In this document: piece by piece, positions 3,202 to 42,427 of the stretch | Numbering within the stretch: the stretch's first letter is position 1 | How the letters are laid out: each line of letters opens with the position of its first letter | Source: an uncultured Gammaproteobacteria bacterium | GTDB taxonomy: Bacteria > Patescibacteriota > Patescibacteriia > Magasanikbacterales > UBA922 | Assembly: GCA_964374115.1 (NCBI GenBank) | Contig: CAYJXK010000002.1 | Coordinates: 1 to 57,286, forward strand | Reading direction: 5' to 3' | Length of the DNA stretch: 57,286 nucleotides | Position numbers and translations under genes: made by a program | Notes under the pieces: generated by a model | The model's database searches: none | Seen by the model: only the letters and a program-made list of their open reading frames with translations | Told to the model about the DNA's origin: nothing

Positions 3202-4440
3202 ATGAAAACAAGACAATATGTCTCCACAGCATTTCGAGGCCTTCGAGTGAATACGGGCCGTTCGATTCTCACCATCCTTGGTATTGTGATTGGCATTACC
3301 GCGATTATTCTTGTCATGGCTGTCGGCAAAGGCGCCGAAGAACTGATCTTGAACCAAATTAGAGGACTCGGCGCTGAAACTATCTTTGTCGAACCTGGCC
3401 GAGAACCTGAAGGGCCGTCGAATTTCGCGGAAGTGTTTACCGATTCACTTACGTCTCGCGATCTCGAATCGCTCCTCAATCCGATCAATGTCCGTGGTAT
3501 TAAAGAAATAAGCCCCAATGTCATTCAAGTCGTACCCGTGACATTTCGAGAAGAGACAATACGGACGAATGTCCTCGGCGCGGCGTCAAGTATTGAAACC
3601 ATCATGGAGATTACTCCAGAGTTTGGCACTTTTTTTAATAAAGATGATGTGCGGGAAAAAGCAGCCGTCGCAGTGCTTGGGGCTGAAGTAAAAAAGAAAC
3701 TGTTTGGCGAATCTGAAGCGATGGGTTCACATATAAAAATTCGATCAAAAACATTTCGAGTCGTCGGCGTGCTTCCCAAAAAAGGCCAGGTAGCGTTTTT
3801 TCCGGTGGACGATACGGTGTTTATTCCCTATACCACGGCTCAGCAGTATCTCCTTGGCATTGATTATTTTCATACCATGATGATCCGTGCGGAAAATGAA
3901 ACAGTGGTTCCTCGCGTCGTGCATGATGTGATATTGACACTCCGAGAACAGCATGGGATTCTGGACCCGGACAAAGATGACTTTCATGTGATAACACAGG
4001 AAGACATTGTGAAGCGAGTGGGTTTTATCACAGGTATCCTCACCATTCTTCTCGTTTCTGTTGCAGGAATTTCACTCCTTGTTGGTGGAGTCGGCATTAT
4101 GAACATCATGCTTGTATCCGTCACAGAGCGGACTCGCGAGATTGGACTCCGCAAAGCCGTTGGCGCCACCAATCGGGATATTCTTTCCCAATTTTTATTT
4201 GAAGCAGTTCTTCTTACAAGTATTGGCGGCATGGCGGGTATTTTCTGTGGCGCGTTATTTTCGTTTGCCACTGTATTTATTCTTTCTCGTGTTGTTTCCG
4301 GAGGGTGGATGTTTCACTTTCCACTCTCCGCTACGTTCATCGGGCTTATTGTTTCCACAGCCACCGGTCTTGTCTTTGGGCTGTATCCTGCTCGTCAAGC
4401 ATCGCGCAAACATCCGATTGAGGCGTTGCGATACGAATGA
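3202..4440 (+). CDS. ABC transporter permease, MacB/FtsX family
   Basis: N-terminal TM, a large extracytoplasmic domain and a C-terminal FtsX-like 3-TM bundle. Adjacent to the ATPase. Confidence 0.9.
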   Translation: MKTRQYVSTAFRGLRVNTGRSILTILGIVIGITAIILVMAVGKGAEELILNQIRGLGAETIFVEPGREPEGPSNFAEVFTDSLTSRDLESLLNPINVRGIKEISPNVIQVVPVTFREETIRTNVLGAASSIETIMEITPEFGTFFNKDDVREKAAVAVLGAEVKKKLFGESEAMGSHIKIRSKTFRVVGVLPKKGQVAFFPVDDTVFIPYTTAQQYLLGIDYFHTMMIRAENETVVPRVVHDVILTLREQHGILDPDKDDFHVITQEDIVKRVGFITGILTILLVSVAGISLLVGGVGIMNIMLVSVTERTREIGLRKAVGATNRDILSQFLFEAVLLTSIGGMAGIFCGALFSFATVFILSRVVSGGWMFHFPLSATFIGLIVSTATGLVFGLYPARQASRKHPIEALRYE

Positions 4441-4606
4441 ACTCATATCGATTTTTTTTCCTCTCACGCCATCCCATCACTTTTTTTTGCCTCCAAAACA
4501 CGCACGCGCAAAACTCGAACAGCATCATAGTCACCCAGAACGCTCTCTACACGCCTGTTTTGCCCCTGAGAATTGGAGGCACAAAAAAAAGGAATCGTGA
4601 CGATGC
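4439..4606 (+). repeat. Family B element, divergent long-form copy lacking one terminus
   Basis: GAACTCATATCGATTTTTTTTCCTCTCACGCCATCCCATCACTTTTTTTTGCCTCCAAAAC matches the reverse complement of 19011..19077. An internal partner arm, GGAGGCACAAAAAAAAGGAATCGTGACGATGC, is present. The element starts inside the stop codon of the permease gene. Confidence 0.65.
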
Positions 4607-4935: not shown

Positions 4936-6066
4936 ATGAAACAAAAGCCAAAGCAGAAAGTTCTCGTTGCCCTGTCCGGCGGTGTTGATTCATCTGTGGC
5001 CGCCGCTTTGCTCGTGGAAAAAGGATATGATGTGGTGGGAGCGTTTATGGTGCAATATGACGACAGTTCAGAGAGAGGAAAAAGATCATGTTGGCCAAAC
5101 GAGTATAGGGATGCCCTGCGTGTTGCCGCGCATCTTGGCATTCCATTGTTGAAATTTGATTTTACCAAAGCATATTCGAATCATGTCCTTGACTATCTGT
5201 ATCGGGAATATCAGGCAGGAAGGACGCCAAATCCTGATGTGTTGTGCAATACGTTTATTAAGTTTGGCGTATGGCTTGAAAAAGCAAAAGCCTTAGGTTT
5301 CTATTATTTGGCGACAGGACATTATGCGAGAATCAAGAAAACAATCCCTTATTTTTTTCACCTTCTGCAAGCCAAAGATACAAATAAAGATCAGACGTAT
5401 TTTTTGCATCAACTGAGTCAGAATCAACTTTCTCATGTCTTATTTCCTATCGGCGAGTATACAAAACCAGAAGTCCGGGCTCTCGCTCGAACATTTGGAT
5501 TGCCAACCGCGGGAAAAGAAGAAAGTATGGGGATTTGTTTTGTGGGAGAAGTATCAATGAAGGAATTTTTGAAGAAAAAAATCAAGGAGAAGCGTGGAAA
5601 TATTGTGACGTCATCTGGGCAGATCATTGGGAAGCATGATGGTTTGGCGTTTTATACGATTGGACAGAGGCACTTTGGAGTTCAGAGTTCGGCGTTCGGA
5701 GTTCAGAGCAAAGACAATCCTCCATTATTTGTGGCTGATAAACGAAGAAGGACAAACGAACTCGTTGTCGGCTTTGAGAATGATCCGTTGTTGTATAAAA
5801 AAGAAATCACCGTGACCGATGTTCATTGGGTGAGAGGTGGACAGGAGTCGCGGTTTCCATTAAAATGTGAAGTGCGACTGCGGCATCGACAGCCACTTCA
5901 AAAGTCTCAAGTCAAAAGTCTCAAGTCTCCGCCAAAGGCGGATCCGCGTCGGGCGAAAAAAGTCATCATTGTTGCATTTGATCATCCGCAACGCGCCGTG
6001 ACCCCGGGACAGTTCGCGGTATTTTATAAAAAAGGTGAATGTTTGGGGGGAGGAGTGATTGAGTGA
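4936..6066 (+). CDS. mnmA: tRNA 2-thiouridine(34) synthase MnmA
   Basis: PP-loop SGGVDSS, the NPDxxCN motif, and the C-terminal GQFAVFY...CLGGGVI. Confidence 0.95.
   Translation: MKQKPKQKVLVALSGGVDSSVAAALLVEKGYDVVGAFMVQYDDSSERGKRSCWPNEYRDALRVAAHLGIPLLKFDFTKAYSNHVLDYLYREYQAGRTPNPDVLCNTFIKFGVWLEKAKALGFYYLATGHYARIKKTIPYFFHLLQAKDTNKDQTYFLHQLSQNQLSHVLFPIGEYTKPEVRALARTFGLPTAGKEESMGICFVGEVSMKEFLKKKIKEKRGNIVTSSGQIIGKHDGLAFYTIGQRHFGVQSSAFGVQSKDNPPLFVADKRRRTNELVVGFENDPLLYKKEITVTDVHWVRGGQESRFPLKCEVRLRHRQPLQKSQVKSLKSPPKADPRRAKKVIIVAFDHPQRAVTPGQFAVFYKKGECLGGGVIE
5678..5709 (+). repeat. Heptanucleotide tandem array inside mnmA (GAGTTCA|GAGTTCG|GCGTTCG|GAGTTCA|GAGC)
   Basis: The 7-bp period is read directly from the sequence. 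It is translated as FGVQSSAFGVQS. Confidence 0.8.
5902..5941 (+). repeat. Heptanucleotide array (AAGTCTC|AAGTCAA|AAGTCTC|AAGTCTC) plus the palindrome CCGCCAAAGGCGG, inside mnmA
   Basis: Four 7-bp units at 5902-5929 are followed by a 13-bp perfect palindrome at 5929-5941. Translated as KSQVKSLKSPPKAD. Confidence 0.85.
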
Positions 6067-16373: not shown

Positions 16374-16430
16374 GAAATTCATATCGAGTTTTTTCCTTTC
16401 GCGCGTCAGACACGGAAACTCGCTATGAGT
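16374..16430 (+). repeat. Family B element, short form, directly abutting MITE-A copy 2
   Basis: GAAATTCATATCGAGTTTTTTCCTTTCGCGCGTCAGACACGGAAACTCGCTATGAGTT. Confidence 0.75.
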
Positions 16431-16612
16431 TACTGACTCTTAACACGTATCTCAACACTACAACCTATGATTTTGGTCACCTTCTCGCCCTTCACCATAA
16501 AAAATCCTCACTGTATCTACGGATACACCTGCGGTTTTTTACGGCTCCAGGGCTTCGAATCTGACTCAAAATAATACCGTGTATTCGTTTAGGTACGTGT
16601 TAAGAGTCAGTA
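16430..16612 (+). mobile_element. MITE-like element, family A, copy 2 (183 bp)
   Basis: About 97% identical to 140..321 with the same 22-bp TIRs. TA is present at both ends. Its right TIR contains the last codon and the stop codon of rnhA. Confidence 0.85.
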
Positions 16613-17008
16613 GTGTTTATCTAATATGGCGTTCACCTCTCGATCCGCTTCTTTGTTGTACTCTCGCAAAACATGTTGTATCGTTGCTTTTTTGAATTGT
16701 TGCATCTCGTTCCACGCTTCTATAAATAATTTTTGAATGTGTGGTTTTTTTACTTTCCATTTTCTGTTCAATTGTTCGACGATTAATTTGCTATCAGCGA
16801 TGCACGTTACTTCTGTTGCGCCAAGAGCACGCGCTTTTTTGAGTCCAGAAATAATAGCGGAGTACTCGGCAACATTGTTCGTTTGTCTCCCAAGATATTC
16901 TCCATAGGACGAGATGACATTGCCGTGACTATTTTTGATAACAACGCCAGTCGCCGCAGGCCCCGGATTGCCACGGGAACCACCGTCTGTGTAGATAGTA
17001 AGTTTCAT
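16607..17008 (-). CDS. rnhA: Ribonuclease HI
   Basis: YTDGGSRGNPGPAATG...NNVAEYSAIISGL...NKEAD, which carries the DEDD-type residues. A 4-nt ATGA overlap links it to recJ. Confidence 0.92.
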   Translation of the reverse strand: MKLTIYTDGGSRGNPGPAATGVVIKNSHGNVISSYGEYLGRQTNNVAEYSAIISGLKKARALGATEVTCIADSKLIVEQLNRKWKVKKPHIQKLFIEAWNEMQQFKKATIQHVLREYNKEADREVNAILDKHY

Positions 17009-18886: not shown

Positions 18887-18900
18887 ATAAAAATATAAAT

Positions 18901-19077
18901 GAACTCATAGCGAGTTTCTGTGTCTCTCGCGCTTTCCCAAGCGCCATTCAGTCACTTTTTCTTTGCCCGCAACTCTGTGGGTTATATCTGACCGTATGGC
19001 GGGGTCGAGAGCGGGTTTTGGAGACAAAGAAAAAGTGATGGGATGGCGCGAGAGGAAAAAACCTAGCTCATGAGTTC
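18901..19077 (-). repeat. Family B element, full-length long form (177 bp)
   Basis: Termini are GAACTCATAGCGAG... and ...CTAGCTCATGAGTTC. The internal arms GCGCCATTCAGTCACTTTTTCTTTG / CAAAGAAAAAGTGATGGGATGGCGC enclose a ~55-nt GC-rich core. Confidence 0.85.
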
Positions 19078-19091
19078 TATAGTAAATTGGA

Positions 19092-20951
19092 TTATCTTTT
19101 GAGAACTGCCAAATAGGCCTCTGTCGGAATTTCAACTTTTCCTTTTCCCAGTTCTTTCATCTTTTTCTTTCCTTTTTTTTGTTTTTCCAGCAGTTTTCTT
19201 TTTCTAGTCACGTCTCCGCCATAGAGCTTCGCGGTCACATCTTTCCGAAGAGCCGAGAGCCGTTCTGCCGCGACGATTTTCCCTCCGATGGCTGCTTGAA
19301 TTTTTATTTCAAACTGTTGCCTCGGGAGCGTCTCTTTGAGAGATGCAACAATCTTTTTCCCAACCTGATACGCCTGATCTCGCCAGACCAGGCTTGCGAG
19401 TGATTCTACTGCCTCTTCTGCGATGAGAATATCGAGGCGCACGACGTCGGTATTTCGATATTCCTTTAATTCATAATTCAAAGAAGCATAGCCACTCGTT
19501 GCCGTTTTGAGTTTATCATAAAAGTCTGTGATGAGCGAGGCAAGCGGCATCTCATAGTGGAGGAGCGCGCGTTGATCCGGACCGGTACTCAAATAATCGG
19601 TATTGAGATAGGCGCCTTTTCGATCGGACACAAGAGTCATCACCCCACCCATAAACGTTTTTGGGACGATAATATCCACATTCATCCATGGTTCTTCCAT
19701 ACGTTCGATATGTTCGATTCGAGGTAAATCCTGAGGACTTTTTACCATCATGATGTGTTTATTTGTCCCATACACCCGATAGGCCACACTTGGGACTGTT
19801 GCAATAATATGAATGGCGAATTCTCTTTTGAGTCGCTCTTGGAATATGTCGAGGTGTAGCATGCCTAAGAACCCACAACGAAAACCAAATCCCAGGGCTT
19901 GCGATTGTTCTGGTTCATACGAGAGCGCGGCATCATTGAGTTTCAATTTTTCCATGGCGTCGCGAAGTTCTGTGTATGCGTCTCCCTCTTGGGGGAAAAT
20001 GCCGGCAAACACCATGGGTTTCACTTCTTTATAGCCGGGTAGCGGTTTTCCTTTTTCATCTGCATGCGCCGCGGTTGTGATCGTGTCTCCTACCCGCACT
20101 TCTCCGAGTTCTTTCAGCCCTGTGACGACATATCCAATCTGTCCGTTCTCAAGAGATGGATCAGAGACCAGAGTAGGGGAGTAATGGCCAGTTTCGAGGG
20201 CTTGGCCTCGCGCAAGGGTCCCCATACAAAGAATGTTTTGGCCTTTTTTCAGAGATCCATCCACCACACGAACCGATGCGACCACACCGCGATAATCATC
20301 ATAAAACGAGTCAAAAATAAGAGCACGCAGTGGTTTTGATTGGTTTGGAAGAGGAGATGGAACGCGGGTAATGACCGCCTCAAGGAGTTCAAGAATTCCC
20401 TCCCCTGTTTTTCCAGAGACACGGAGAATTTCTTTTTTTGCGCATCCCAGAAGATGAATGATTTCTTCTTCTGTTTTTTGAATTTCAGCGTTGGGCAGAT
20501 CAATTTTATTCATGACTGGAATGATGGTGAGTCCTTGGTCGATCGCAAGATAGAGATTCGCAATGGTTTGAGCCTGGACACCCTGGCTTGCATCAACCAA
20601 AAGAATAGCACCCTCTACAGCAGCGAGCGATCGTGAGACTTCATAGGTAAAGTCCACGTGTCCGGGTGTATCGATCAAATTGAGTTCATAGTTCACAATT
20701 TCTGCCAGAGGCGAACCCGCCTTTGGCGGGCGCAGTTCGGAGTTTGTTGATTGAAGTTGATAATGCATTCTGACCGGTTGCAACTTAATCGTAATTCCTC
20801 GCTCTTGCTCGAGTTCCATCTGGTCGAGCAGTTGCGCGCGCATATTTCTTTTTTCTATTGTTCCTGTCATTTCAAGAAAGCGATCCGCAAGTGTGGATTT
20901 TCCATGATCAATATGGGCAATGATGCAAAAATTTCGGATGGATTGGTTCAT
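19092..20951 (-). CDS. lepA: Elongation factor 4 (LepA)
   Basis: IRNFCIIAHIDHGKST, DTPGHVDF, NKID and the LepA C-terminal domain. The start was set at MNQSIRNF, which gives an ATGA overlap with the murJ stop. Confidence 0.95.
   Translation of the reverse strand: MNQSIRNFCIIAHIDHGKSTLADRFLEMTGTIEKRNMRAQLLDQMELEQERGITIKLQPVRMHYQLQSTNSELRPPKAGSPLAEIVNYELNLIDTPGHVDFTYEVSRSLAAVEGAILLVDASQGVQAQTIANLYLAIDQGLTIIPVMNKIDLPNAEIQKTEEEIIHLLGCAKKEILRVSGKTGEGILELLEAVITRVPSPLPNQSKPLRALIFDSFYDDYRGVVASVRVVDGSLKKGQNILCMGTLARGQALETGHYSPTLVSDPSLENGQIGYVVTGLKELGEVRVGDTITTAAHADEKGKPLPGYKEVKPMVFAGIFPQEGDAYTELRDAMEKLKLNDAALSYEPEQSQALGFGFRCGFLGMLHLDIFQERLKREFAIHIIATVPSVAYRVYGTNKHIMMVKSPQDLPRIEHIERMEEPWMNVDIIVPKTFMGGVMTLVSDRKGAYLNTDYLSTGPDQRALLHYEMPLASLITDFYDKLKTATSGYASLNYELKEYRNTDVVRLDILIAEEAVESLASLVWRDQAYQVGKKIVASLKETLPRQQFEIKIQAAIGGKIVAAERLSALRKDVTAKLYGGDVTRKRKLLEKQKKGKKKMKELGKGKVEIPTEAYLAVLKR
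20716..20744 (-). repeat. Two heptamers (AACTCCG|AACTGCG) plus the palindrome CCCGCCAAAGGCGGG, inside lepA
   Basis: The coding strand reads AACTCCGAACTGCGCCCGCCAAAGGCGGG, translated as NSELRPPKAG. The palindrome core is the same as at 5929-5941 in mnmA. Confidence 0.7.
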
Positions 20952-22567: not shown

Positions 22568-22628
22568 GAACTTCATGAGCTAGGTTTTTTCCTTTCGCGC
22601 GAGAGACACGGAAACTCGCTATGAGTTC
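22568..22628 (+). repeat. Family B element, short form (61 bp)
   Basis: GAACTTCATGAGCTAGGTTTTTTCCTTTCGCGCGAGAGACACGGAAACTCGCTATGAGTTC. Its right end overlaps the corA stop codon. Confidence 0.85.
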
Positions 22629-23568
22629 AGAGCCATCGTTTTCGTTTCAAACGATATATGATCACAGCGATGATACCGGACAGGACAGCAAACATGGCCC
22701 ATACCCAAATAGGATTTTCCACAAAAGGGAGACCGCGGATATTCATGCCATAAATACTTGAGAGCACGGAAAATGGCAGAAGGGAAACGGAAATGACTGT
22801 GAGGGTAGACACCGTTTTGTTGATTCTTCGATTGATAAGAGACTCGACCGTGGTATGGAGTCCATTCAGCGTATCTTTGTATGTGTCCACAATCGTCCAA
22901 ATTTTGTTCAAATAATCATTGAGATCATCAAAATACAGACTCGTTTCCTCATTGAGGAATGGTTTGTGGATGTGAGTGATCGTGCTCACAAGATACCGTT
23001 GGGGGTCAATCACCCGTCGAAAATTCACCACGTTTCTGCGATGACGAGCGAGCTCGTAAATGATGCCTGTGTCTGGTTCACTCCCAAAGATTTCTTGTTC
23101 CAAAAGAATAATTTTTTTTCCAATATTATTCAAAATAGGTTGAGAATGTCGAAATAATGCTTCGATAATTCTGTAGAGAAGATATCCAGACGATTGCTCC
23201 ATCCAATCCTGCTTTACGCTTCTATTTTTCATGCAGCGATAAAAAAAATTTTTCATTTCTTTGGATTTTTCATTTTGGATGGTCACGAGGTATCCTTCTC
23301 CCAGAAAAATATCCACTTCATGATGAACAACGGTGCGGTCGTGCGCCTGCCACTGGGGAAATTGGAGAATGACAAAAAGGTAATTTTTGTATACATCCAC
23401 CTTGGGAATGTGGCTTTCTCCCTGCACATCTTCGAGATCCAGGTGATGAAATGAAAAGTTCTGACGCAGATAAGTGACTGCCGTCTCGTCCACATGATCA
23501 ATGTTGATCCATTTGAGTCGTGCTGACTCGATAATTTTGATGGCCATATAGGTTTTTCGATATTGCAA
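22627..23568 (-). CDS. corA: Magnesium/cobalt transporter CorA
   Basis: The YGMNIRGLP (GMN) motif followed by the C-terminal TM pair. Confidence 0.93.
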   Translation of the reverse strand: MQYRKTYMAIKIIESARLKWINIDHVDETAVTYLRQNFSFHHLDLEDVQGESHIPKVDVYKNYLFVILQFPQWQAHDRTVVHHEVDIFLGEGYLVTIQNEKSKEMKNFFYRCMKNRSVKQDWMEQSSGYLLYRIIEALFRHSQPILNNIGKKIILLEQEIFGSEPDTGIIYELARHRRNVVNFRRVIDPQRYLVSTITHIHKPFLNEETSLYFDDLNDYLNKIWTIVDTYKDTLNGLHTTVESLINRRINKTVSTLTVISVSLLPFSVLSSIYGMNIRGLPFVENPIWVWAMFAVLSGIIAVIIYRLKRKRWL

Positions 23569-29140: not shown

Positions 29141-29178
29141 CGAGTTTTTTCCTTCCGCGCCGTCCAATCACTTTTTAT
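29131..29178 (+). repeat. Family B element fragment overlapping the uvrB stop codon
   Basis: AAATTCATAGCGAGTTTTTTCCTTCCGCGCCGTCCAATCACTTTTT matches the family B terminus plus the start of the internal arm. Confidence 0.6.
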
Positions 29179-29630
29179 TATTTTACTTCCACTATCACAT
29201 CATTGCTATATATCGTGCATGTTTTGTTCTTCACCACACAGATACGAAAGTGTTGCGTGCCGCTTGGCCAGCCTGCCTTTGTCAATTCGCGGTGGGCTGG
29301 ACCTCGTTCATGCCAATAGGTGGACGGCCATTCTGGATTTGGATCTTTACTCTGCACAATTCTGTATCCTTCGGCATCTTCTGCAATATTTTCACGCACT
29401 TCCCATTGAAATTGCACGGTGCTCGTGGATGCCAATCCTTCGGCTTTGAGTGTTATGCCACTGTTCAGATCTGTGATGGAAGTGTCGTCCACGGATTCTG
29501 GTCGCGTGGATTCTTGTTGTATTCCCGGCGTTATGGTAGGAGCAGGGTTGAGAGAGCCAACCTTCTCACATCCAACACCCATGAGGAGTAATCCAAAAAA
29601 CGGGACTATGATGCGCGCGCGCCTATACAT
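29178..29630 (-). CDS. Secreted or lipid-anchored hypothetical protein
   Basis: Signal peptide ending in ...LLLMGVGC. Downstream of the GH-like gene on the same strand. Confidence 0.65.
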   Translation of the reverse strand: MYRRARIIVPFFGLLLMGVGCEKVGSLNPAPTITPGIQQESTRPESVDDTSITDLNSGITLKAEGLASTSTVQFQWEVRENIAEDAEGYRIVQSKDPNPEWPSTYWHERGPAHRELTKAGWPSGTQHFRICVVKNKTCTIYSNDVIVEVK

Positions 29631-37711: not shown

Positions 37712-38662
37712 ATGGATCACATATATCAGATGTTGAAACAATTTGGTCATGTCACACTTCACGAATTCCTTGCCAAGCATACAACATTTAAAATTGGCGG
37801 ACAGGCTGACTATTTTGTGACGGCAAAAAGTACGGATGATTTGATAGAATTGCTCAAATATCTCGATCAAGAAGGCACACCGTATTTTATTTTGGGTGGG
37901 GGAAGTAATGTTTTGGTGAGGGATGATGGATTTGATGGGGTCGTGGTAAAAGTCCGAAGTCAGAAGTCCGAAGTCAGAAGTCCATTTCTTGAAGCCGATG
38001 CAGGGTGTGTTACGGTTGAAATGGCACAACAATCAATCAAAGCAGAGCTGACGGGATTTGAGTGGGGTGTCGGAGTGCCCGGGACGATTGGTGGAGCGGT
38101 GCGAGGCAATGCCGGGGCAATGGATGGAGAGATGAAAGATGTTGTTGAATCAGTTGATGTATATCAAGATGGAGAAGTCGTAACGCTTTCGAATACAGCA
38201 TGCGAGTTTCGTTATCGAGATAGTGTGTTTAAACATGGGGGCGGTGTTGTTTTGAGAGCGAGGTTACGGTTGAGGATAAAAGAAAAAAAAGATGAAGCAG
38301 GCATAAAAAAAGCACTTGAATATCTACAGTATCGCAGTAAAACACAGCCTCAGGGGTGGGCGAATACAGGATGTATTTTTAAAAACAGTCATCAGCTATC
38401 AGCCATCAGCCATCAAATTGAAATGCCAAAAGAATTCATTCAGAAGGGCAAAATTCCTGCGGGATGGTTGGTAGAAAAGGCTGGGATGAAAGGGGCACAA
38501 GTCGGGAACGCAAAGGTGAGCGATGTGCATGGGAATTTTATTGTGAATATGGGTGGAGCAACCGCGGCCGATGTGTCGGCACTTATTGAAAAGGTGAAAG
38601 GGGCAGTGTATACTCGATGTGGGGTAGTGCTAGAAGAAGAAATACAGATTCTTGGAAATTAG
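37712..38662 (+). CDS. murB: UDP-N-acetylenolpyruvoylglucosamine reductase
   Basis: FAD-binding domain (HTTFKIGGQADYF, ILGGGSN) and C-terminal SAGWLVEKAGMKG...HGNFIVN. Confidence 0.94.
   Translation: MDHIYQMLKQFGHVTLHEFLAKHTTFKIGGQADYFVTAKSTDDLIELLKYLDQEGTPYFILGGGSNVLVRDDGFDGVVVKVRSQKSEVRSPFLEADAGCVTVEMAQQSIKAELTGFEWGVGVPGTIGGAVRGNAGAMDGEMKDVVESVDVYQDGEVVTLSNTACEFRYRDSVFKHGGGVVLRARLRLRIKEKKDEAGIKKALEYLQYRSKTQPQGWANTGCIFKNSHQLSAISHQIEMPKEFIQKGKIPAGWLVEKAGMKGAQVGNAKVSDVHGNFIVNMGGATAADVSALIEKVKGAVYTRCGVVLEEEIQILGN
37950..37984 (+). repeat. Five-unit heptanucleotide array inside murB (AAGTCCG|AAGTCAG|AAGTCCG|AAGTCAG|AAGTCCA)
   Basis: Read directly from the sequence. Translated as KVRSQKSEVRSP. 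Confidence 0.85.
38386..38413 (+). repeat. Four-unit heptanucleotide array inside murB (CAGTCAT|CAGCTAT|CAGCCAT|CAGCCAT)
   Basis: Read directly from the sequence. Translated as SHQLSAISHQ. Confidence 0.8.
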
Positions 38663-39336: not shown

Positions 39337-39410
39337 TTTCTCAGGCGCAGTCTGGACAACAAGGGGGAAAAGATGATATCCTCGCAGACAGGAAAGAGAT
39401 TACATCCATT

Positions 39411-39509
39411 CTCGACCACGCCATATGGTGAGATATGGCCCACAGAGTTGCCGGCAAAGAAAAAGTGACTGAATGGCGCTCGGGAGAGCGCGAGAGACAC
39501 GGAAACTCG
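39411..39509 (+). repeat. Family B element, half copy (core plus one terminus)
   Basis: The reverse complement aligns with 18901..19010 of the long copy, with scattered substitutions. It ends in GGAAACTCGCTATGAGTTC. Confidence 0.8.
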
Positions 39510-39541
39510 CTATGAGTTCGGAATTAGGAATTCACACTCGT

Positions 39542-42427
39542 ATGTCTTGGTACACAAAAATTTTCGGCGATCCATCGAAAAAAGAGTTACAAAAATTGCA
39601 ACCCATCGTAGAAAAAATCAACCATCTTGAGCTTGAATATCAGGCGCTTTCAGATGAGGGATTGCGAGAGAAGACCGATACATTCAAAGTACGGTTGCAA
39701 CAGGGAGAAACCCTCGAGGATCTTATCCCGGAAGCATTCGCGGCAGTCCGCGAAGCATCCAGGCGCACCACAGGCATGCGTCATTTTGATGTCCAGCTTA
39801 TTGGGGGCATGGCTCTGCATCAGAGAAAGATCGCGGAAATGCGAACCGGAGAAGGAAAAACACTGGTTGCCACACTTCCGGCCTATCTCAACGCGCTTGA
39901 GGGAAAAGGGGTGCATATCGTGACCGTCAATGATTACCTCGCTCGCCGTGATGCGGTGTGGATGGGGCAGATTTATGATTTTTTGGGGATGCGTGTGGGT
40001 ATTGTTCAGAATTTGAGGATTTCGTATGTGTACAGTTCAGAATTCAGAGTGCAGAGTGCAGAGGAACAGGAAACATTGAAAGAGGGAAGTGATACAGATA
40101 AAGAACGAGACGAGATGGGTAGTTTCAAAGTAGAGTACGATTATCTACAATCCTGTTCGCGACAAGAGGCGTATCGTTGCGATATTACCTATGGCACGAA
40201 CAATGAATTTGGGTTTGATTATCTTCGCGACAACATGGTGCAAGATGTGTCGGAGATGGTGATGCGGCCTGGTGCGGAAATGCATTACGCCATTGTGGAT
40301 GAAATTGATTCTATTCTCATTGACGAGGCGAGGACTCCCCTTATTATCTCAACGCCAGCAGAAGAGGCAGGAGAGCAATATTATATGTTTGCCCGATTGG
40401 TGCGACAGCTCACAGAGCATGATGATTTCGCGATTGATGAAAAACTGCGGAGTGTCACGCTGACAGAATCAGGGATTGCAAAATTTGAGGAGTGGCTCGG
40501 CGTGGAAAATCTTTACGTCGAAGGCGGCATTCCAATGGTCCATCATATTGAACAGGCGCTCAAAGCCGAGTATCTTTTCAAACGTGATAAAGAATACGTC
40601 GTTGATATGGATGAAATTCTTATCATTGATGAATTTACCGGACGCAAAATGCCAGGGCGCAGATATTCCGAAGGACTGCACCAGGCGATCGAAGCGAAAG
40701 AAGGCGTCACGATCAAGCGCGAGAGCGTCACGCTTGCGACCATTACATTTCAAAATCTCTTCCGCATGTATCGTAAATTATCGGGCATGACTGGGACGGC
40801 AAAAACAGAGGAAGAAGAGTTTTATCGAATTTATGGACTTGAAGTATTTACGATTCCCACAAACAAATCCGATCACAGGTCTGATCACCCGGATCGCATT
40901 TATCGAAGTAACAGCGGCAAATACGCCGCGATCGTAGAAAAGATAAAAGAAGCCCAAACAAAATCGCAGCCACTCCTCATCGGCACCATCTCTGTAGAAA
41001 AAAATGAAGAGCTGAGCGCTTATTTGGATGCGAACGGCATTGCGCATGAAATTTTGAACGCGAAAAATCATGAACGTGAAGGAGAGATTATCGCGCAAGC
41101 CGGTCGGCCCGGCGCGGTGACACTCGCGACCAATATGGCAGGACGTGGTGTGGATATTAAGCTCGGAGGTAGCCCGGTGAATGAGGAAGAGGCAGTACGG
41201 GTCGTTGCCGCAGGCGGGCTTTTTGTACTCGGTACGGAGCGGCATGAGGCACGACGTATCGACAATCAACTTCGAGGGCGCGCGGCTCGTCAGGGCGATC
41301 CGGGTGAAACGCAATTTTTTGTGTCTACTGAAGACGATCTCATGCGTATTTTTGCGGGCGATCGGATGAAAGCGGTGATGACACGGCTCAAGGTTCCAGA
41401 AGACATGCCGATCGAACAGCGCATGATTACTCGCATGCTCGAAAGCGCGCAGAAAAAAGTAGAAGGATTTCATTTTGATTCGCGCAAACACGTGCTCCAG
41501 TACGACGATGTGCTCAATCGTCATCGCCATGTGATCTATACCAAGCGCCGGCAAATTCTTGAAATCGCTGCCAAAGCCGAAGGGGTTCTCGATCCTTTCA
41601 TCCAGCTTGTCACACTCGAAGAAGGCGATGTGCGTTATGATACACTCAAAGACATGATGCTCGAAATGATTGATGGAGAAATTGAGTTTCTGGTGAGTTT
41701 TCACACCATGATGCCCGGAGAAGAATCAGCAGATTTTTTGAGAGAGACAAAAGGATTATGGGATATGGAGGGAATTATAGAAGGAATCAAATCGATATTT
41801 CCAATGAAAAGCGAGGACATAGCGCATCTGCGCGAAACATTTAGACCAGCGGCAATGGGCAACAAAAGCACAATAGAACACAAAGATGCCATGATTCAGT
41901 TTATAGCTCAAAAAGCCCGCGCCGAGTATGCGCTTATTGAAGAAAAGATGCGGACAGTGGGCGATGGGCAAGCGGAAGCTGGTAATCGTCTGATGCAAGG
42001 GGTCGAGCGCAGTGTTCTTATTCGAGCGATTGACACGCTCTGGGTTGAACATTTAGTTTCTGTGGATTATCTGCGCACCGGCATTGGTCTTCGTGGTTAT
42101 GGGCAACGCGATCCACTGATTGAATACAAAAAAGAAGCATATCGTTTATTCCAGGAGTTGCTTGGCAATATTCAAAAAGAAGTGGTGACGTCATTTTTCA
42201 AAATTGGGCTCGGGATTCAAATGGCGCCGCGAATGATCGGCGAATTGGCGTTTGGTCCCTCGATTATGGCAAAAGACAAGATGGTGATGACTGGCGCCAA
42301 AAAATCGGAAGAAGAACATTTGGCTCCATCATCCACTCCTCGGTCAGCAGATGGAAAAAAAGTTGGGCGCAATGATCCGTGTCCGTGTGAAAGCGGCAGA
42401 AAGTACAAAAAGTGTCATGGGAAATAA
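39542..42427 (+). CDS. secA: Preprotein translocase ATPase SecA
   Basis: KIFGDPSKKELQK, MRTGEGKT, DEID/DEAR, and the C-terminal zinc tail CPCESGRKYKKCHG. The start was set at MSWYTKIFG. The upstream part of the ORF runs through a repeat. Confidence 0.96.
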   Translation: MSWYTKIFGDPSKKELQKLQPIVEKINHLELEYQALSDEGLREKTDTFKVRLQQGETLEDLIPEAFAAVREASRRTTGMRHFDVQLIGGMALHQRKIAEMRTGEGKTLVATLPAYLNALEGKGVHIVTVNDYLARRDAVWMGQIYDFLGMRVGIVQNLRISYVYSSEFRVQSAEEQETLKEGSDTDKERDEMGSFKVEYDYLQSCSRQEAYRCDITYGTNNEFGFDYLRDNMVQDVSEMVMRPGAEMHYAIVDEIDSILIDEARTPLIISTPAEEAGEQYYMFARLVRQLTEHDDFAIDEKLRSVTLTESGIAKFEEWLGVENLYVEGGIPMVHHIEQALKAEYLFKRDKEYVVDMDEILIIDEFTGRKMPGRRYSEGLHQAIEAKEGVTIKRESVTLATITFQNLFRMYRKLSGMTGTAKTEEEEFYRIYGLEVFTIPTNKSDHRSDHPDRIYRSNSGKYAAIVEKIKEAQTKSQPLLIGTISVEKNEELSAYLDANGIAHEILNAKNHEREGEIIAQAGRPGAVTLATNMAGRGVDIKLGGSPVNEEEAVRVVAAGGLFVLGTERHEARRIDNQLRGRAARQGDPGETQFFVSTEDDLMRIFAGDRMKAVMTRLKVPEDMPIEQRMITRMLESAQKKVEGFHFDSRKHVLQYDDVLNRHRHVIYTKRRQILEIAAKAEGVLDPFIQLVTLEEGDVRYDTLKDMMLEMIDGEIEFLVSFHTMMPGEESADFLRETKGLWDMEGIIEGIKSIFPMKSEDIAHLRETFRPAAMGNKSTIEHKDAMIQFIAQKARAEYALIEEKMRTVGDGQAEAGNRLMQGVERSVLIRAIDTLWVEHLVSVDYLRTGIGLRGYGQRDPLIEYKKEAYRLFQELLGNIQKEVVTSFFKIGLGIQMAPRMIGELAFGPSIMAKDKMVMTGAKKSEEEHLAPSSTPRSADGKKVGRNDPCPCESGRKYKKCHGK
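40034..40061 (+). repeat. Four-unit heptanucleotide array inside secA (AGTTCAG|AATTCAG|AGTGCAG|AGTGCAG)
   Basis: Read directly from the sequence, with degenerate continuation to about 40075. Translated as SSEFRVQSAEE. Confidence 0.8.

Follow-up and report, generated by a model that had tools for sequence, protein, structure and literature searches.

Short in-frame insertions in lepA and mnmA of a Magasanikbacterales bacterium as probable copies of a dispersed 30-nt double-hairpin element

We analysed a 57,286-nt stretch of DNA (the window) from an uncultured Magasanikbacterales bacterium (contig CAYJXK010000002.1), in which lepA, encoding elongation factor 4, and mnmA, encoding a tRNA 2-thiouridine synthase, share a short palindrome adjoining heptamer repeats. 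The two sites are very probably copies of one family of dispersed, inserted hairpin elements. The element is 30 nt long and consists of two hairpins with 6-bp stems and 3-nt loops (6-3-6 then 6-3-6); its consensus reads TCCGCC-RRR-GGCGGA followed by TCCGCC-YYY-GGCGGA, and spans 36 nt with TTT and AAA flanks. Both window copies are old, fixed and partly decayed, and show no sign of current activity; the element presumably has no active role there now, having been absorbed as a 10-residue loop extension of LepA and of MnmA.

The preliminary description of this DNA had reported, on the lepA coding strand at 20716-20744, the heptamers AACTCCG AACTGCG followed by CCCGCCAAAGGCGGG and encoding NSELRPPKAG, with a 13-bp core identical to one in mnmA. 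Both statements are exact. The 13-mer CCGCCAAAGGCGG has two exact copies in the window, at 5929-5941 (+ strand, mnmA) and 20717-20729 (- strand, lepA); each lies on the coding strand of its gene, is translated as PPKA and adjoins 7-nt repeats. On the + strand, positions 20716-20730 read CCCGCCTTTGGCGGG and positions 20731-20744 read CGCAGTT CGGAGTT. None of 100 dinucleotide-preserving shuffles of the window contained any exact copy of the 13-mer, and a looser test allowing up to two mismatches was not significant alone (33 of 100 shuffles). A repeat search of the window showed that the likeness between lepA and mnmA extends beyond the 13-mer, 3' of the hairpin, over 31 nt at 81% identity. The 13-bp core is therefore real, but the full unit is the 30-nt double hairpin, in which the 15-nt unit TCCGCCNNNGGCGGA is present twice. 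Of the 24 positions that the family consensus specifies, 2 are mismatched in the mnmA copy and 4 in the lepA copy; no other site in the window scores comparably. In lepA, hairpin 1 is intact and closed by a compensated pair (C...G replacing T...A), and hairpin 2 is weakened by one T.G pair and one C/A mismatch; in mnmA, hairpin 1 is perfect and hairpin 2 has 2 mismatches. Because the second hairpin has decayed in both copies, only a palindrome of 13-15 nt was visible at first. The lepA element folds as two hairpins at -10 kcal/mol, and RNA folding of 86-nt coding-strand windows showed the small hairpin alone, overall not significant. The reading frames of lepA and mnmA are intact across the insert.

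LepA and MnmA homologues assign the contig to Candidatus Magasanikbacteria (Patescibacteria/CPR), the best non-self matches having 73-75% identity for LepA and 60-66% for MnmA. Comparison with orthologues from this group revealed empty sites for both insertions. The exact boundaries were set by pairwise affine-gap alignment of orthologue DNA, since MAFFT misplaced the mnmA gap because of the repeats. Aligned with the orthologue L125, mnmA shows one clean 30-nt gap lying exactly over TCCGCCAAAGGCGGATCCGCGTCGGGCGAA (window 5928-5957). At the protein level, the MnmA orthologues P0161 and P0146 lack the 10 residues and have ...KSLKSKV... where the window protein has ...KSLKS-PPKADPRRAK-KV... The insert falls in a beta-hairpin turn of the C-terminal domain, and the structures 9hlv, 2hma and 2der align with a gap there. 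Another Patescibacteria MnmA (P0175, on L128) has an independent variant copy, TCCAGCCAGAGGCTGG followed by TCAGCCTTTGGCTGA, in the same MnmA hairpin; it lies among AAGT repeats, and its loops are AGA then TTT, versus AAA then TCG in the window mnmA copy.

For lepA, alignment with the orthologue L127 opens a single 51-nt gap (window 20694-20744), composed of AACTCCG AACTGCG, CCCGCCAAAGGCGGGTTCGCCTCTGGCAGA and AATTGTG, that is, three heptamers (21 nt) plus the 30 nt of the element. The extra residues noticed before the DTPGHVDF motif are thus present, but they number 17 against the closest empty-site orthologues and not the roughly 14 first proposed. The insert sits between G2 (RGITIK) and G3 (DTPGH), in what we take to be the beta2-beta3 hairpin turn of the G domain, and the LepA structures 2ywe and 3deg/3cb4 align with a gap of 14-16 residues at this place. 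In about 100 of 120 Magasanikbacteria orthologues the turn is minimal (M-x-Y-K-x-Y-x-LNLIDTPGH); about 20 of the 120 carry other, unrelated inserts of 5-70 residues at exactly the same turn. Neither of the two outcomes that would have refuted the preliminary description was observed, these being a palindrome common at random positions genome-wide and LepA orthologues that encode the same PPKA-containing loop without any palindrome. The empty orthologous sites, together with the presence of the same sequence at more than 200 non-homologous sites elsewhere, mean that slippage does not explain the insertions, as had been suspected from the window.

We determined the extent of the family by two scans. 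Searching one genome per GTDB species with the pattern CCGCCAAAGGCGGNTYCGC returned at least 120 loci; about 90 of those listed carry the full 30-mer, T-CCGCC-AAA-GGCGG-A followed by T-CCGCC-TCN-GGCGG-A, and the remaining listed matches were set aside as chance matches in high-GC genomes, for example in a conserved alphaproteobacterial gene. A loop-agnostic scan of JGI metagenome contigs gave at least 120 further loci, and the two scans together yield more than 200 intact copies, which is a lower bound. Among the listed genome copies, the positions left free by the pattern (20 and 24-29) are 95-100% invariant and variation is confined to loop 2; every listed genome copy with an initial C instead of T also has a G at position 14. 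In the listed metagenome copies, loop 1 is purine-rich (AAA, AGA, GAA, CAA) and loop 2 pyrimidine-rich (TCN, TTC, TTG, TTT). The central GGATCC is kept in 81 of 90 listed copies, and listed copies tend to have TTT before the element and AAA after it, a bias that could belong to the target or to the element alike. Folding of the 36-nt consensus gives -15.7 kcal/mol (z = -5.9), with either one long hairpin or two small ones. In the fetched loci, stem variants with the same geometry are changed on both sides (TCTCCC/GGGAGA, four times; TGCGCC/GGCGCA; TCCGGC/GCCGGA; CCACCC/GGGTGG; CCAGCC/GGCTGG), and double hairpins number 220, versus 0 in shuffled sequence. Stem bases are either kept or replaced pairwise, and loops are variable. 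An intrinsic terminator was ruled out, since a T-run precedes the hairpins, an A-run follows them and the element lies inside open reading frames (ORFs). An Rfam scan of six element-bearing loci (E<=1) returned only rRNA, tRNA and chance matches away from the element.

Some loci have more elaborate layouts. In L184 (2331-2404) two elements stand in tandem, 14 nt (two heptamers) apart; at two positions in L094 (6186 and 7179) and in L012/L075 the flanks are also similar, and the elements seem to be embedded in longer repeated units. These layouts hint at composite or nested arrangements.

The element inserts into unrelated genes. Its hosts include RecG, GyrB, an ArsA-type ATPase, Mfd, PheT, UvrB, LeuRS, PolX, CTP synthase and a GH57 protein, and copy positions along the host genes are uniform. 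Copies also lie in intergenic DNA and in rRNA-operon spacers (for example in L021 and L081). In L021, which belongs to a Magasanikbacteria metagenome-assembled genome (MAG), two copies (4071-4089 and 4362-4380) flank tRNA genes in the 16S-23S spacer and share variant features, a G at position 14 and a TGT loop. Thirty nucleotides are 10 codons, and the consensus is stop-free in all six frames, with occasional loop variants (TGA, TAG) creating a stop; hence the element can sit in genes without breaking them. Its three frames read SAxGGSAxGG, PPxADPPxAE and RQRRIRLxRK. Open frames of 200 codons or more hold 75 of 123 listed copies, and both window copies are likewise intragenic; in the listed metagenome set such frames comprise 63 SA, 9 PP and 3 RQ, and the listed genome set shows the same bias toward SA. 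Reading as PPKA is not a trait of the family, since most intragenic copies elsewhere are in the SAxGG frame and the window frame is a minority class. Orientation relative to the host gene is uninformative, both strands reading as a purine loop then a pyrimidine loop. A conserved protein motif was ruled out as the source of the likeness: the hosts are unrelated, third codon positions are invariant, and all frames as well as non-coding sites occur. In a Bacteroidota MAG (L019), the element lies at codon 401 of a 403-codon ORF, and a TGA in its SA-frame loop seemingly supplies the stop codon.

We then compared the insertion borders. The preliminary description had taken the heptamers and the palindrome together for one discrete insertion element. 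The discrete insertion stands, on the evidence of the empty sites and of the dispersal, but the heptamers were ruled out as part of it, since they are locus-specific and match the native codons of each host: they are of AAGTC type in mnmA, AACT type in lepA and many other types elsewhere. In lepA, AACTATG AACTCAA are native codons (N-Y-E-L-N) conserved across LepA orthologues. Arrays are present at the orthologous empty sites as well. The empty lepA site of L126 reads AACTATC AACTATC AACTGGC AACTATG AACTCAA and that of L127 CAAACTA three times, while the empty mnmA sites of L124 and L125 carry imperfect AAGTC-periodic arrays at the same place. Hence, the heptamers are local features that predate the element; from these sequences, the arrays are best explained by local slippage. 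They form the landing site and are not carried by the element, the 30-mer being the foreign piece. Both window 30-mers lie exactly at a heptamer unit boundary, with the array resuming in register beyond. Elsewhere, heptamer arrays accompany 8 of 89 listed genome copies (versus 0.24% of control positions), again in register across the element, and 11 of 123 listed metagenome copies (versus 0.12% of control positions), which is an enrichment of listed copies inside arrays of 40-75 times; the array heptamer in a Moranbacteria MAG (L048), AAAAGTC, is the same as that of the window mnmA. Perfect border repeats of 3-10 nt, as expected from target-site duplication, were found around 87 listed copies only once at 4 nt, once at 5 nt and three times at 7 nt. 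Mean 7-nt border identity in these copies is 0.37 versus 0.29 in controls, a slight excess due to the copies in heptamer arrays. A 7-bp target duplication, with the arrays as insertion/excision footprints, was ruled out: the heptamers on the two sides are identical in just 3 of the 87 copies, border identity hardly exceeds that of controls, and arrays already occur at empty sites.

The family is widely distributed. Among the 87 listed genome loci with a full element, 48 (about 55%) are labelled as Patescibacteria lineages; the others belong to Omnitrophota, Ignavibacteriota, Bacteroidota, Planctomycetota, Lentisphaerota, Kiritimatiellia, Auribacterota, Zixibacteria, Margulisbacteria and unclassified MAGs. 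Within a MAG, 13 of 18 pairs of copies (72%) agree in loop 2, compared with 14% between genomes. Copies are thus more alike within one genome than between genomes and form genome-specific sub-families. A phage or plasmid vector is not evident, given 2 IMG/VR contigs and no full-length plasmid or cultured-phage match.

These observations are best explained by a non-autonomous mobile element that would be copied within genomes by a trans-acting factor. After insertion, selection would retain only those copies that fall in tolerant surface loops and are read in a harmless frame, mostly Ser-Ala-x-Gly-Gly twice; small flexible Ser/Ala/Gly peptides would be harmless in beta-turns and all else would be purged. 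The window inserts would then represent the rarer Pro-Pro-Lys-Ala frame. Selection after insertion best explains the frame bias and the loop locations. Of the known mechanisms, the one that would fit the copying best is a hairpin-recognising single-strand DNA transposition of the HUH/Y1 kind, as in IS200/IS605 or REP-RAYT systems. Such transposition requires hairpins and produces no target duplication, and it would favour slippage-prone arrays that expose single strands. Since no enzyme is linked to the element, we propose this mechanism only tentatively and consider it doubtful as it stands. In its fullest form the reading would describe a pan-phylum family of double hairpins of about 30 nt, active in Patescibacteria, Omnitrophota and other uncultivated lineages, which moves between phyla, targets heptamer arrays and remodels essential proteins (LepA, MnmA, GyrB, UvrB, aminoacyl-tRNA synthetases) with 10-residue loops, and whose TCCGCCNNNGGCGGA hairpin is recognised by a trans-acting enzyme. 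We regard this whole as conceivable, with the balance somewhat against it.

Several results weigh against a mobile element. When the 1548 ORFs of 87 listed loci were compared all against all, neither a transposase or partner gene nor a recurrent family was found within about 8 kb of the element; this argues against a cis-encoded mobilising gene. The lack of a neighbouring partner is what would be expected if the factor acts in trans, but it lends the mechanism no support. No filled/empty polymorphism was seen between near-identical genomes, so that recent movement is deduced from other evidence, and the similarity of copies within a genome could also arise by gene conversion. The decay of both window copies leaves current activity in this genome unsupported. 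Among 2.9 million IMG/VR viral contigs only 2 matched, and the full-length element is absent from PLSDB plasmids (7.3 Gb) and from GenBank phages (2.3 Gb), which come from cultivated hosts. The taxon labels of many MAGs, such as 'uncultured Gammaproteobacteria' or 'Saccharibacteria' in third-party annotation (TPA) assemblies, may be unreliable. Finally, vertical descent hardly accounts for a 30-mer that is nearly identical across phyla; horizontal spread or a conserved template would be needed.

Copies could instead have spread by reverse transcription of an RNA intermediate, or else by gene conversion or templated patch repair from other copies, with the arrays giving microhomology or slipped priming structures. 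The absence of target duplication agrees with such a route; it would also suit an element too small for terminal-repeat recognition, copies that are homogenised within a genome as gene conversion would yield, and the location of the majority of copies within transcribed genes. Reverse transcriptases are common in these genomes, and an RVT_1 gene stands beside lepA in L126, perhaps by coincidence. An RNA route was reportedly proposed for the cyanobacterial SDR elements by Elhai et al. in 2008. However, neither a poly-A tract nor any other retro-insertion signature was found, copies also lie in rRNA-operon spacers and intergenic DNA, and no orientation bias with respect to transcription can be defined, because the element is near-identical on both strands. 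We consider this route unlikely, though it is the main rival. A host function that keeps the double hairpin, be it a protein or nuclease site, mRNA stability or ribosome pausing, methylation or restriction at GGATCC, or an uptake or recombination signal, would agree with the invariant or two-sidedly changed stems beside variable loops, with the GGATCC centre so widely kept, and with the conserved TTT/AAA flanks that lengthen the palindrome. It is nevertheless improbable: the density of 2 copies in 57 kb, and usually 1 per 8-kb locus, is far under that of uptake or Chi-like signals, positions along genes are uniform and hosts unrelated, most orthologues lack the element, and its T-run first, A-run last layout inside ORFs is not that of a terminator. 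The second hairpins of the window copies have moreover decayed, a structure left unmaintained, as in the neutral decay of old copies.

There is next to no chance that the two window sites are a coincidence or have a purely local origin, with independent hairpins formed by slippage or snap-back synthesis beside arrays, or with a shared PPKA peptide motif. Chance 13-mer repeats are indeed many in 57 kb when all pairs are counted, the two-mismatch test was not significant, and heptamer arrays do form locally. Against this stand the absence of any exact copy in 100 shuffles and the 30-nt match to an external consensus found at more than 200 loci. Nucleotides are conserved even where codons are synonymous, whichever of the three frames is read, and outside coding DNA, and the host proteins are unrelated. 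The dispersed family returned by the scans, with its invariant positions, already refutes this explanation. A family of inserted elements thus remains our reading of the two sites.

We compared this inserted family with known systems. REP and REPIN sequences are imperfect palindromes of 20-40 nt, often paired, that leave no target duplication and depend on a trans-acting RAYT (a Y1 HUH enzyme); REPs are extragenic by definition, have a conserved 5' GTAG and flank the RAYT gene. The present element resembles them in size and in the lack of target duplication, but it is mostly inside ORFs, GTAG is absent from 90 listed copies (which begin TTT-TCCGCC...), and no associated gene is seen within flanks of up to 8 kb. 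Elements of the IS200/IS605 type (PATE-like) have hairpin ends, leave no duplication and insert next to a short specific target sequence. Hairpins and the absence of duplication are seen here too; the flanks are biased to T-T-T and A-A-A, which may be target or element, and no transposase link was found. A miniature inverted-repeat transposable element (MITE) was ruled out, since these are 50-500 bp long with the terminal inverted repeats of a parent IS, whereas our element has 30 nt and no target-site duplication. The cyanobacterial SDRs were reportedly described by Elhai et al. in 2008 as hairpin-forming dispersed sequences of 21-27 nt, often embedded in STRR heptamer arrays, with compensatory stem changes, and proposed as the smallest mobile elements. 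The likeness lies in a very small hairpin element and in heptamer arrays, which hold 9% of listed copies; our copies differ in being mainly intragenic and in frame. No full cyanobacterial copy occurs among the at least 120 genome matches listed, which argues against SDR membership, and SDR elements are reported as confined to Nostocaceae, with a link between SDR5 and HIP1 (PMC5861425).

Rickettsia palindromic elements (RPEs) are about 100-150 bp long, form ten sequence families, are restricted to Rickettsia and lie in frame in unrelated housekeeping genes, where they are tolerated at permissive sites, in small reduced genomes (PMC10969869). Our element is similarly translated in frame within housekeeping genes, but it has a fifth of their length and an unrelated sequence, and is found in many phyla of uncultivated bacteria. 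The GC clusters, double-hairpin elements and repetitive hairpin-forming elements of mitochondria (yeast, Allomyces, sponges) are short and GC-rich, with one or two adjacent hairpins. They are dispersed in AT-rich compact genomes, sometimes inside protein or rRNA genes and sometimes in tandem, with complementary substitutions between variants and no known function (PMC2800124; see also PMC4478555). The geometry of our element recalls theirs. The mitochondrial elements are organellar, lineage-specific and unrelated in sequence, whereas ours is bacterial, with one 30-mer across phyla. In the searchable full-text literature, the nucleotide strings of the element match only cloning primers and its peptide strings nothing; queries combining candidate phyla radiation (CPR), palindromic and in-frame returned nothing relevant, and a description may exist outside that literature. 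The family has apparently not been described so far.

If it is indeed new, the family would give bacteria, across phyla, an equivalent of RPEs, cyanobacterial SDRs and mitochondrial double-hairpin elements. Hundreds of natural insertions with known empty sites could then be used to test how mobile sequences propagate that have no room to encode anything. It would account for part of the lineage-specific loop insertions in Patescibacteria housekeeping proteins, which affect alignments, phylogenies and structure predictions, and would tie in-gene tandem heptamer arrays to palindrome insertion, a link earlier reported only in Nostocaceae. The strong frame bias (Ser-Ala-x-Gly-Gly twice) would amount to a natural experiment showing which insertions of 10 residues can be tolerated by essential proteins. 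Were the full reading true, the element would be among the smallest mobile DNAs known. The window itself is more modest, with two old, fixed and decaying copies. The coordinates of the features are collected in the table below.

Table. Positions in the window of the two host genes, their double-hairpin insertions, the adjoining heptamers and an intergenic repeat family.
Feature	Position	Strand	Basis or content
lepA (elongation factor 4), host gene	19092..20951	-	translation; orthologues named elongation factor 4 / LepA
Decayed 30-nt double-hairpin element in lepA	20701..20730	-	CCCGCCAAAGGCGGG then TTCGCCTCTGGCAGA; encodes PPKAGSPLAE
Heptamers AACTCCG AACTGCG, directly 5' of the lepA element (coding strand)	20731..20744	-	local AACTnnG array
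Heptamers 3' of the lepA element: AATTGTG (extra unit), AACTATG AACTCAA	20680..20700	-	orthologue comparison
mnmA (tRNA 2-thiouridine synthase), host gene	4936..6066	+	orthologues, structure alignments
30-nt double-hairpin element in mnmA	5928..5957	+	TCCGCCAAAGGCGGA then TCCGCGTCGGGCGAA; adds PPKADPRRAK
Heptamer array AAAAGTC TCAAGTC AAAAGTC TCAAGTC, directly 5' of the mnmA element	5900..5927	+	TRF: period 14, 2.1 copies, 100% match
Heptamer AAAAGTC, directly 3' of the mnmA element	5958..5964	+	native K-V codons; array in register across the insertion
Intergenic repeat family	2429-2507, 16388-16431, 18890-19087, 22573-22630, 39410-39519, also 4454-4488, 29144-29179	both	window repeat search

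The LepA beta-turn is also an insertion hot spot in other Magasanikbacteria. One orthologue (L001, 10001-11854) carries there inverted heptamer arrays, (xCAGAAT)n ... (ATTCTGA)n, built on the native ATTCTTAAT; in another (L002, 358-2238), AAATNCN heptamers are broken by a different GC palindrome of 21 nt, CCGTGCCTGCCGGCAGGCAGG; a third (L003, 641-2491) has pure heptamers, ATACGAAATCCCAA twice. Other recurrent in-frame inserts are found in LepA and MnmA orthologues (P0053, P0119, P0122, P0181, P0206, P0208, P0209, P0235, P0140 and P0237), namely CHSERSE.../CHSDRSG..., SPLGRGRGG, VILSETKDP... and ...RDSS...GMTN. The CHSERSE-type and the other recurrent inserts look like translations of other GC-rich palindromic repeat families, which suggests that several small element families colonise the same loops. 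The RVT_1 reverse-transcriptase gene of the Magasanikbacteria contig L126 (1-1771) encodes 668 residues and lies directly upstream of lepA.

Heptamer arrays also occur inside other reading frames of the window. A GAGTTCA array of 4.4 units in mnmA (5678-5708) is translated as FGVQSSAFGVQS, in a loop that has many different inserts in orthologues. The ORF at 37712-38662 holds two arrays, at 37950-37983 (AAGTCCG/AAGTCAG) and 38386-38415 (CAGCCAT, 4.3 units), and the ORF at 39473-42427 one of TTCAGAA/GTGCAGA at 40020-40063. From their sequences, this lineage seems to have in-frame 7-nt arrays at protein loops as a general feature.

Two further repeats were noticed in the window. A dispersed repeat of about 190 nt lies at 137-322 and 16427-16613, with blocks of 113 nt and 80 nt at 96% identity and an internal inverted repeat of 26 nt; a partial inverted copy stands at the contig end (57233-57286). 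The intergenic repeat family combines GTTTTTTCC..CGCGAGAGACACGGAAACTCGCTATGAGTT with TTTTTTCCTCTCACGCC..CACTTTTT, is found in either orientation, frequently just ahead of ORF starts, and has among its members an inverted pair of 110 nt (92%); it may be a shared promoter or leader, or another mobile repeat.

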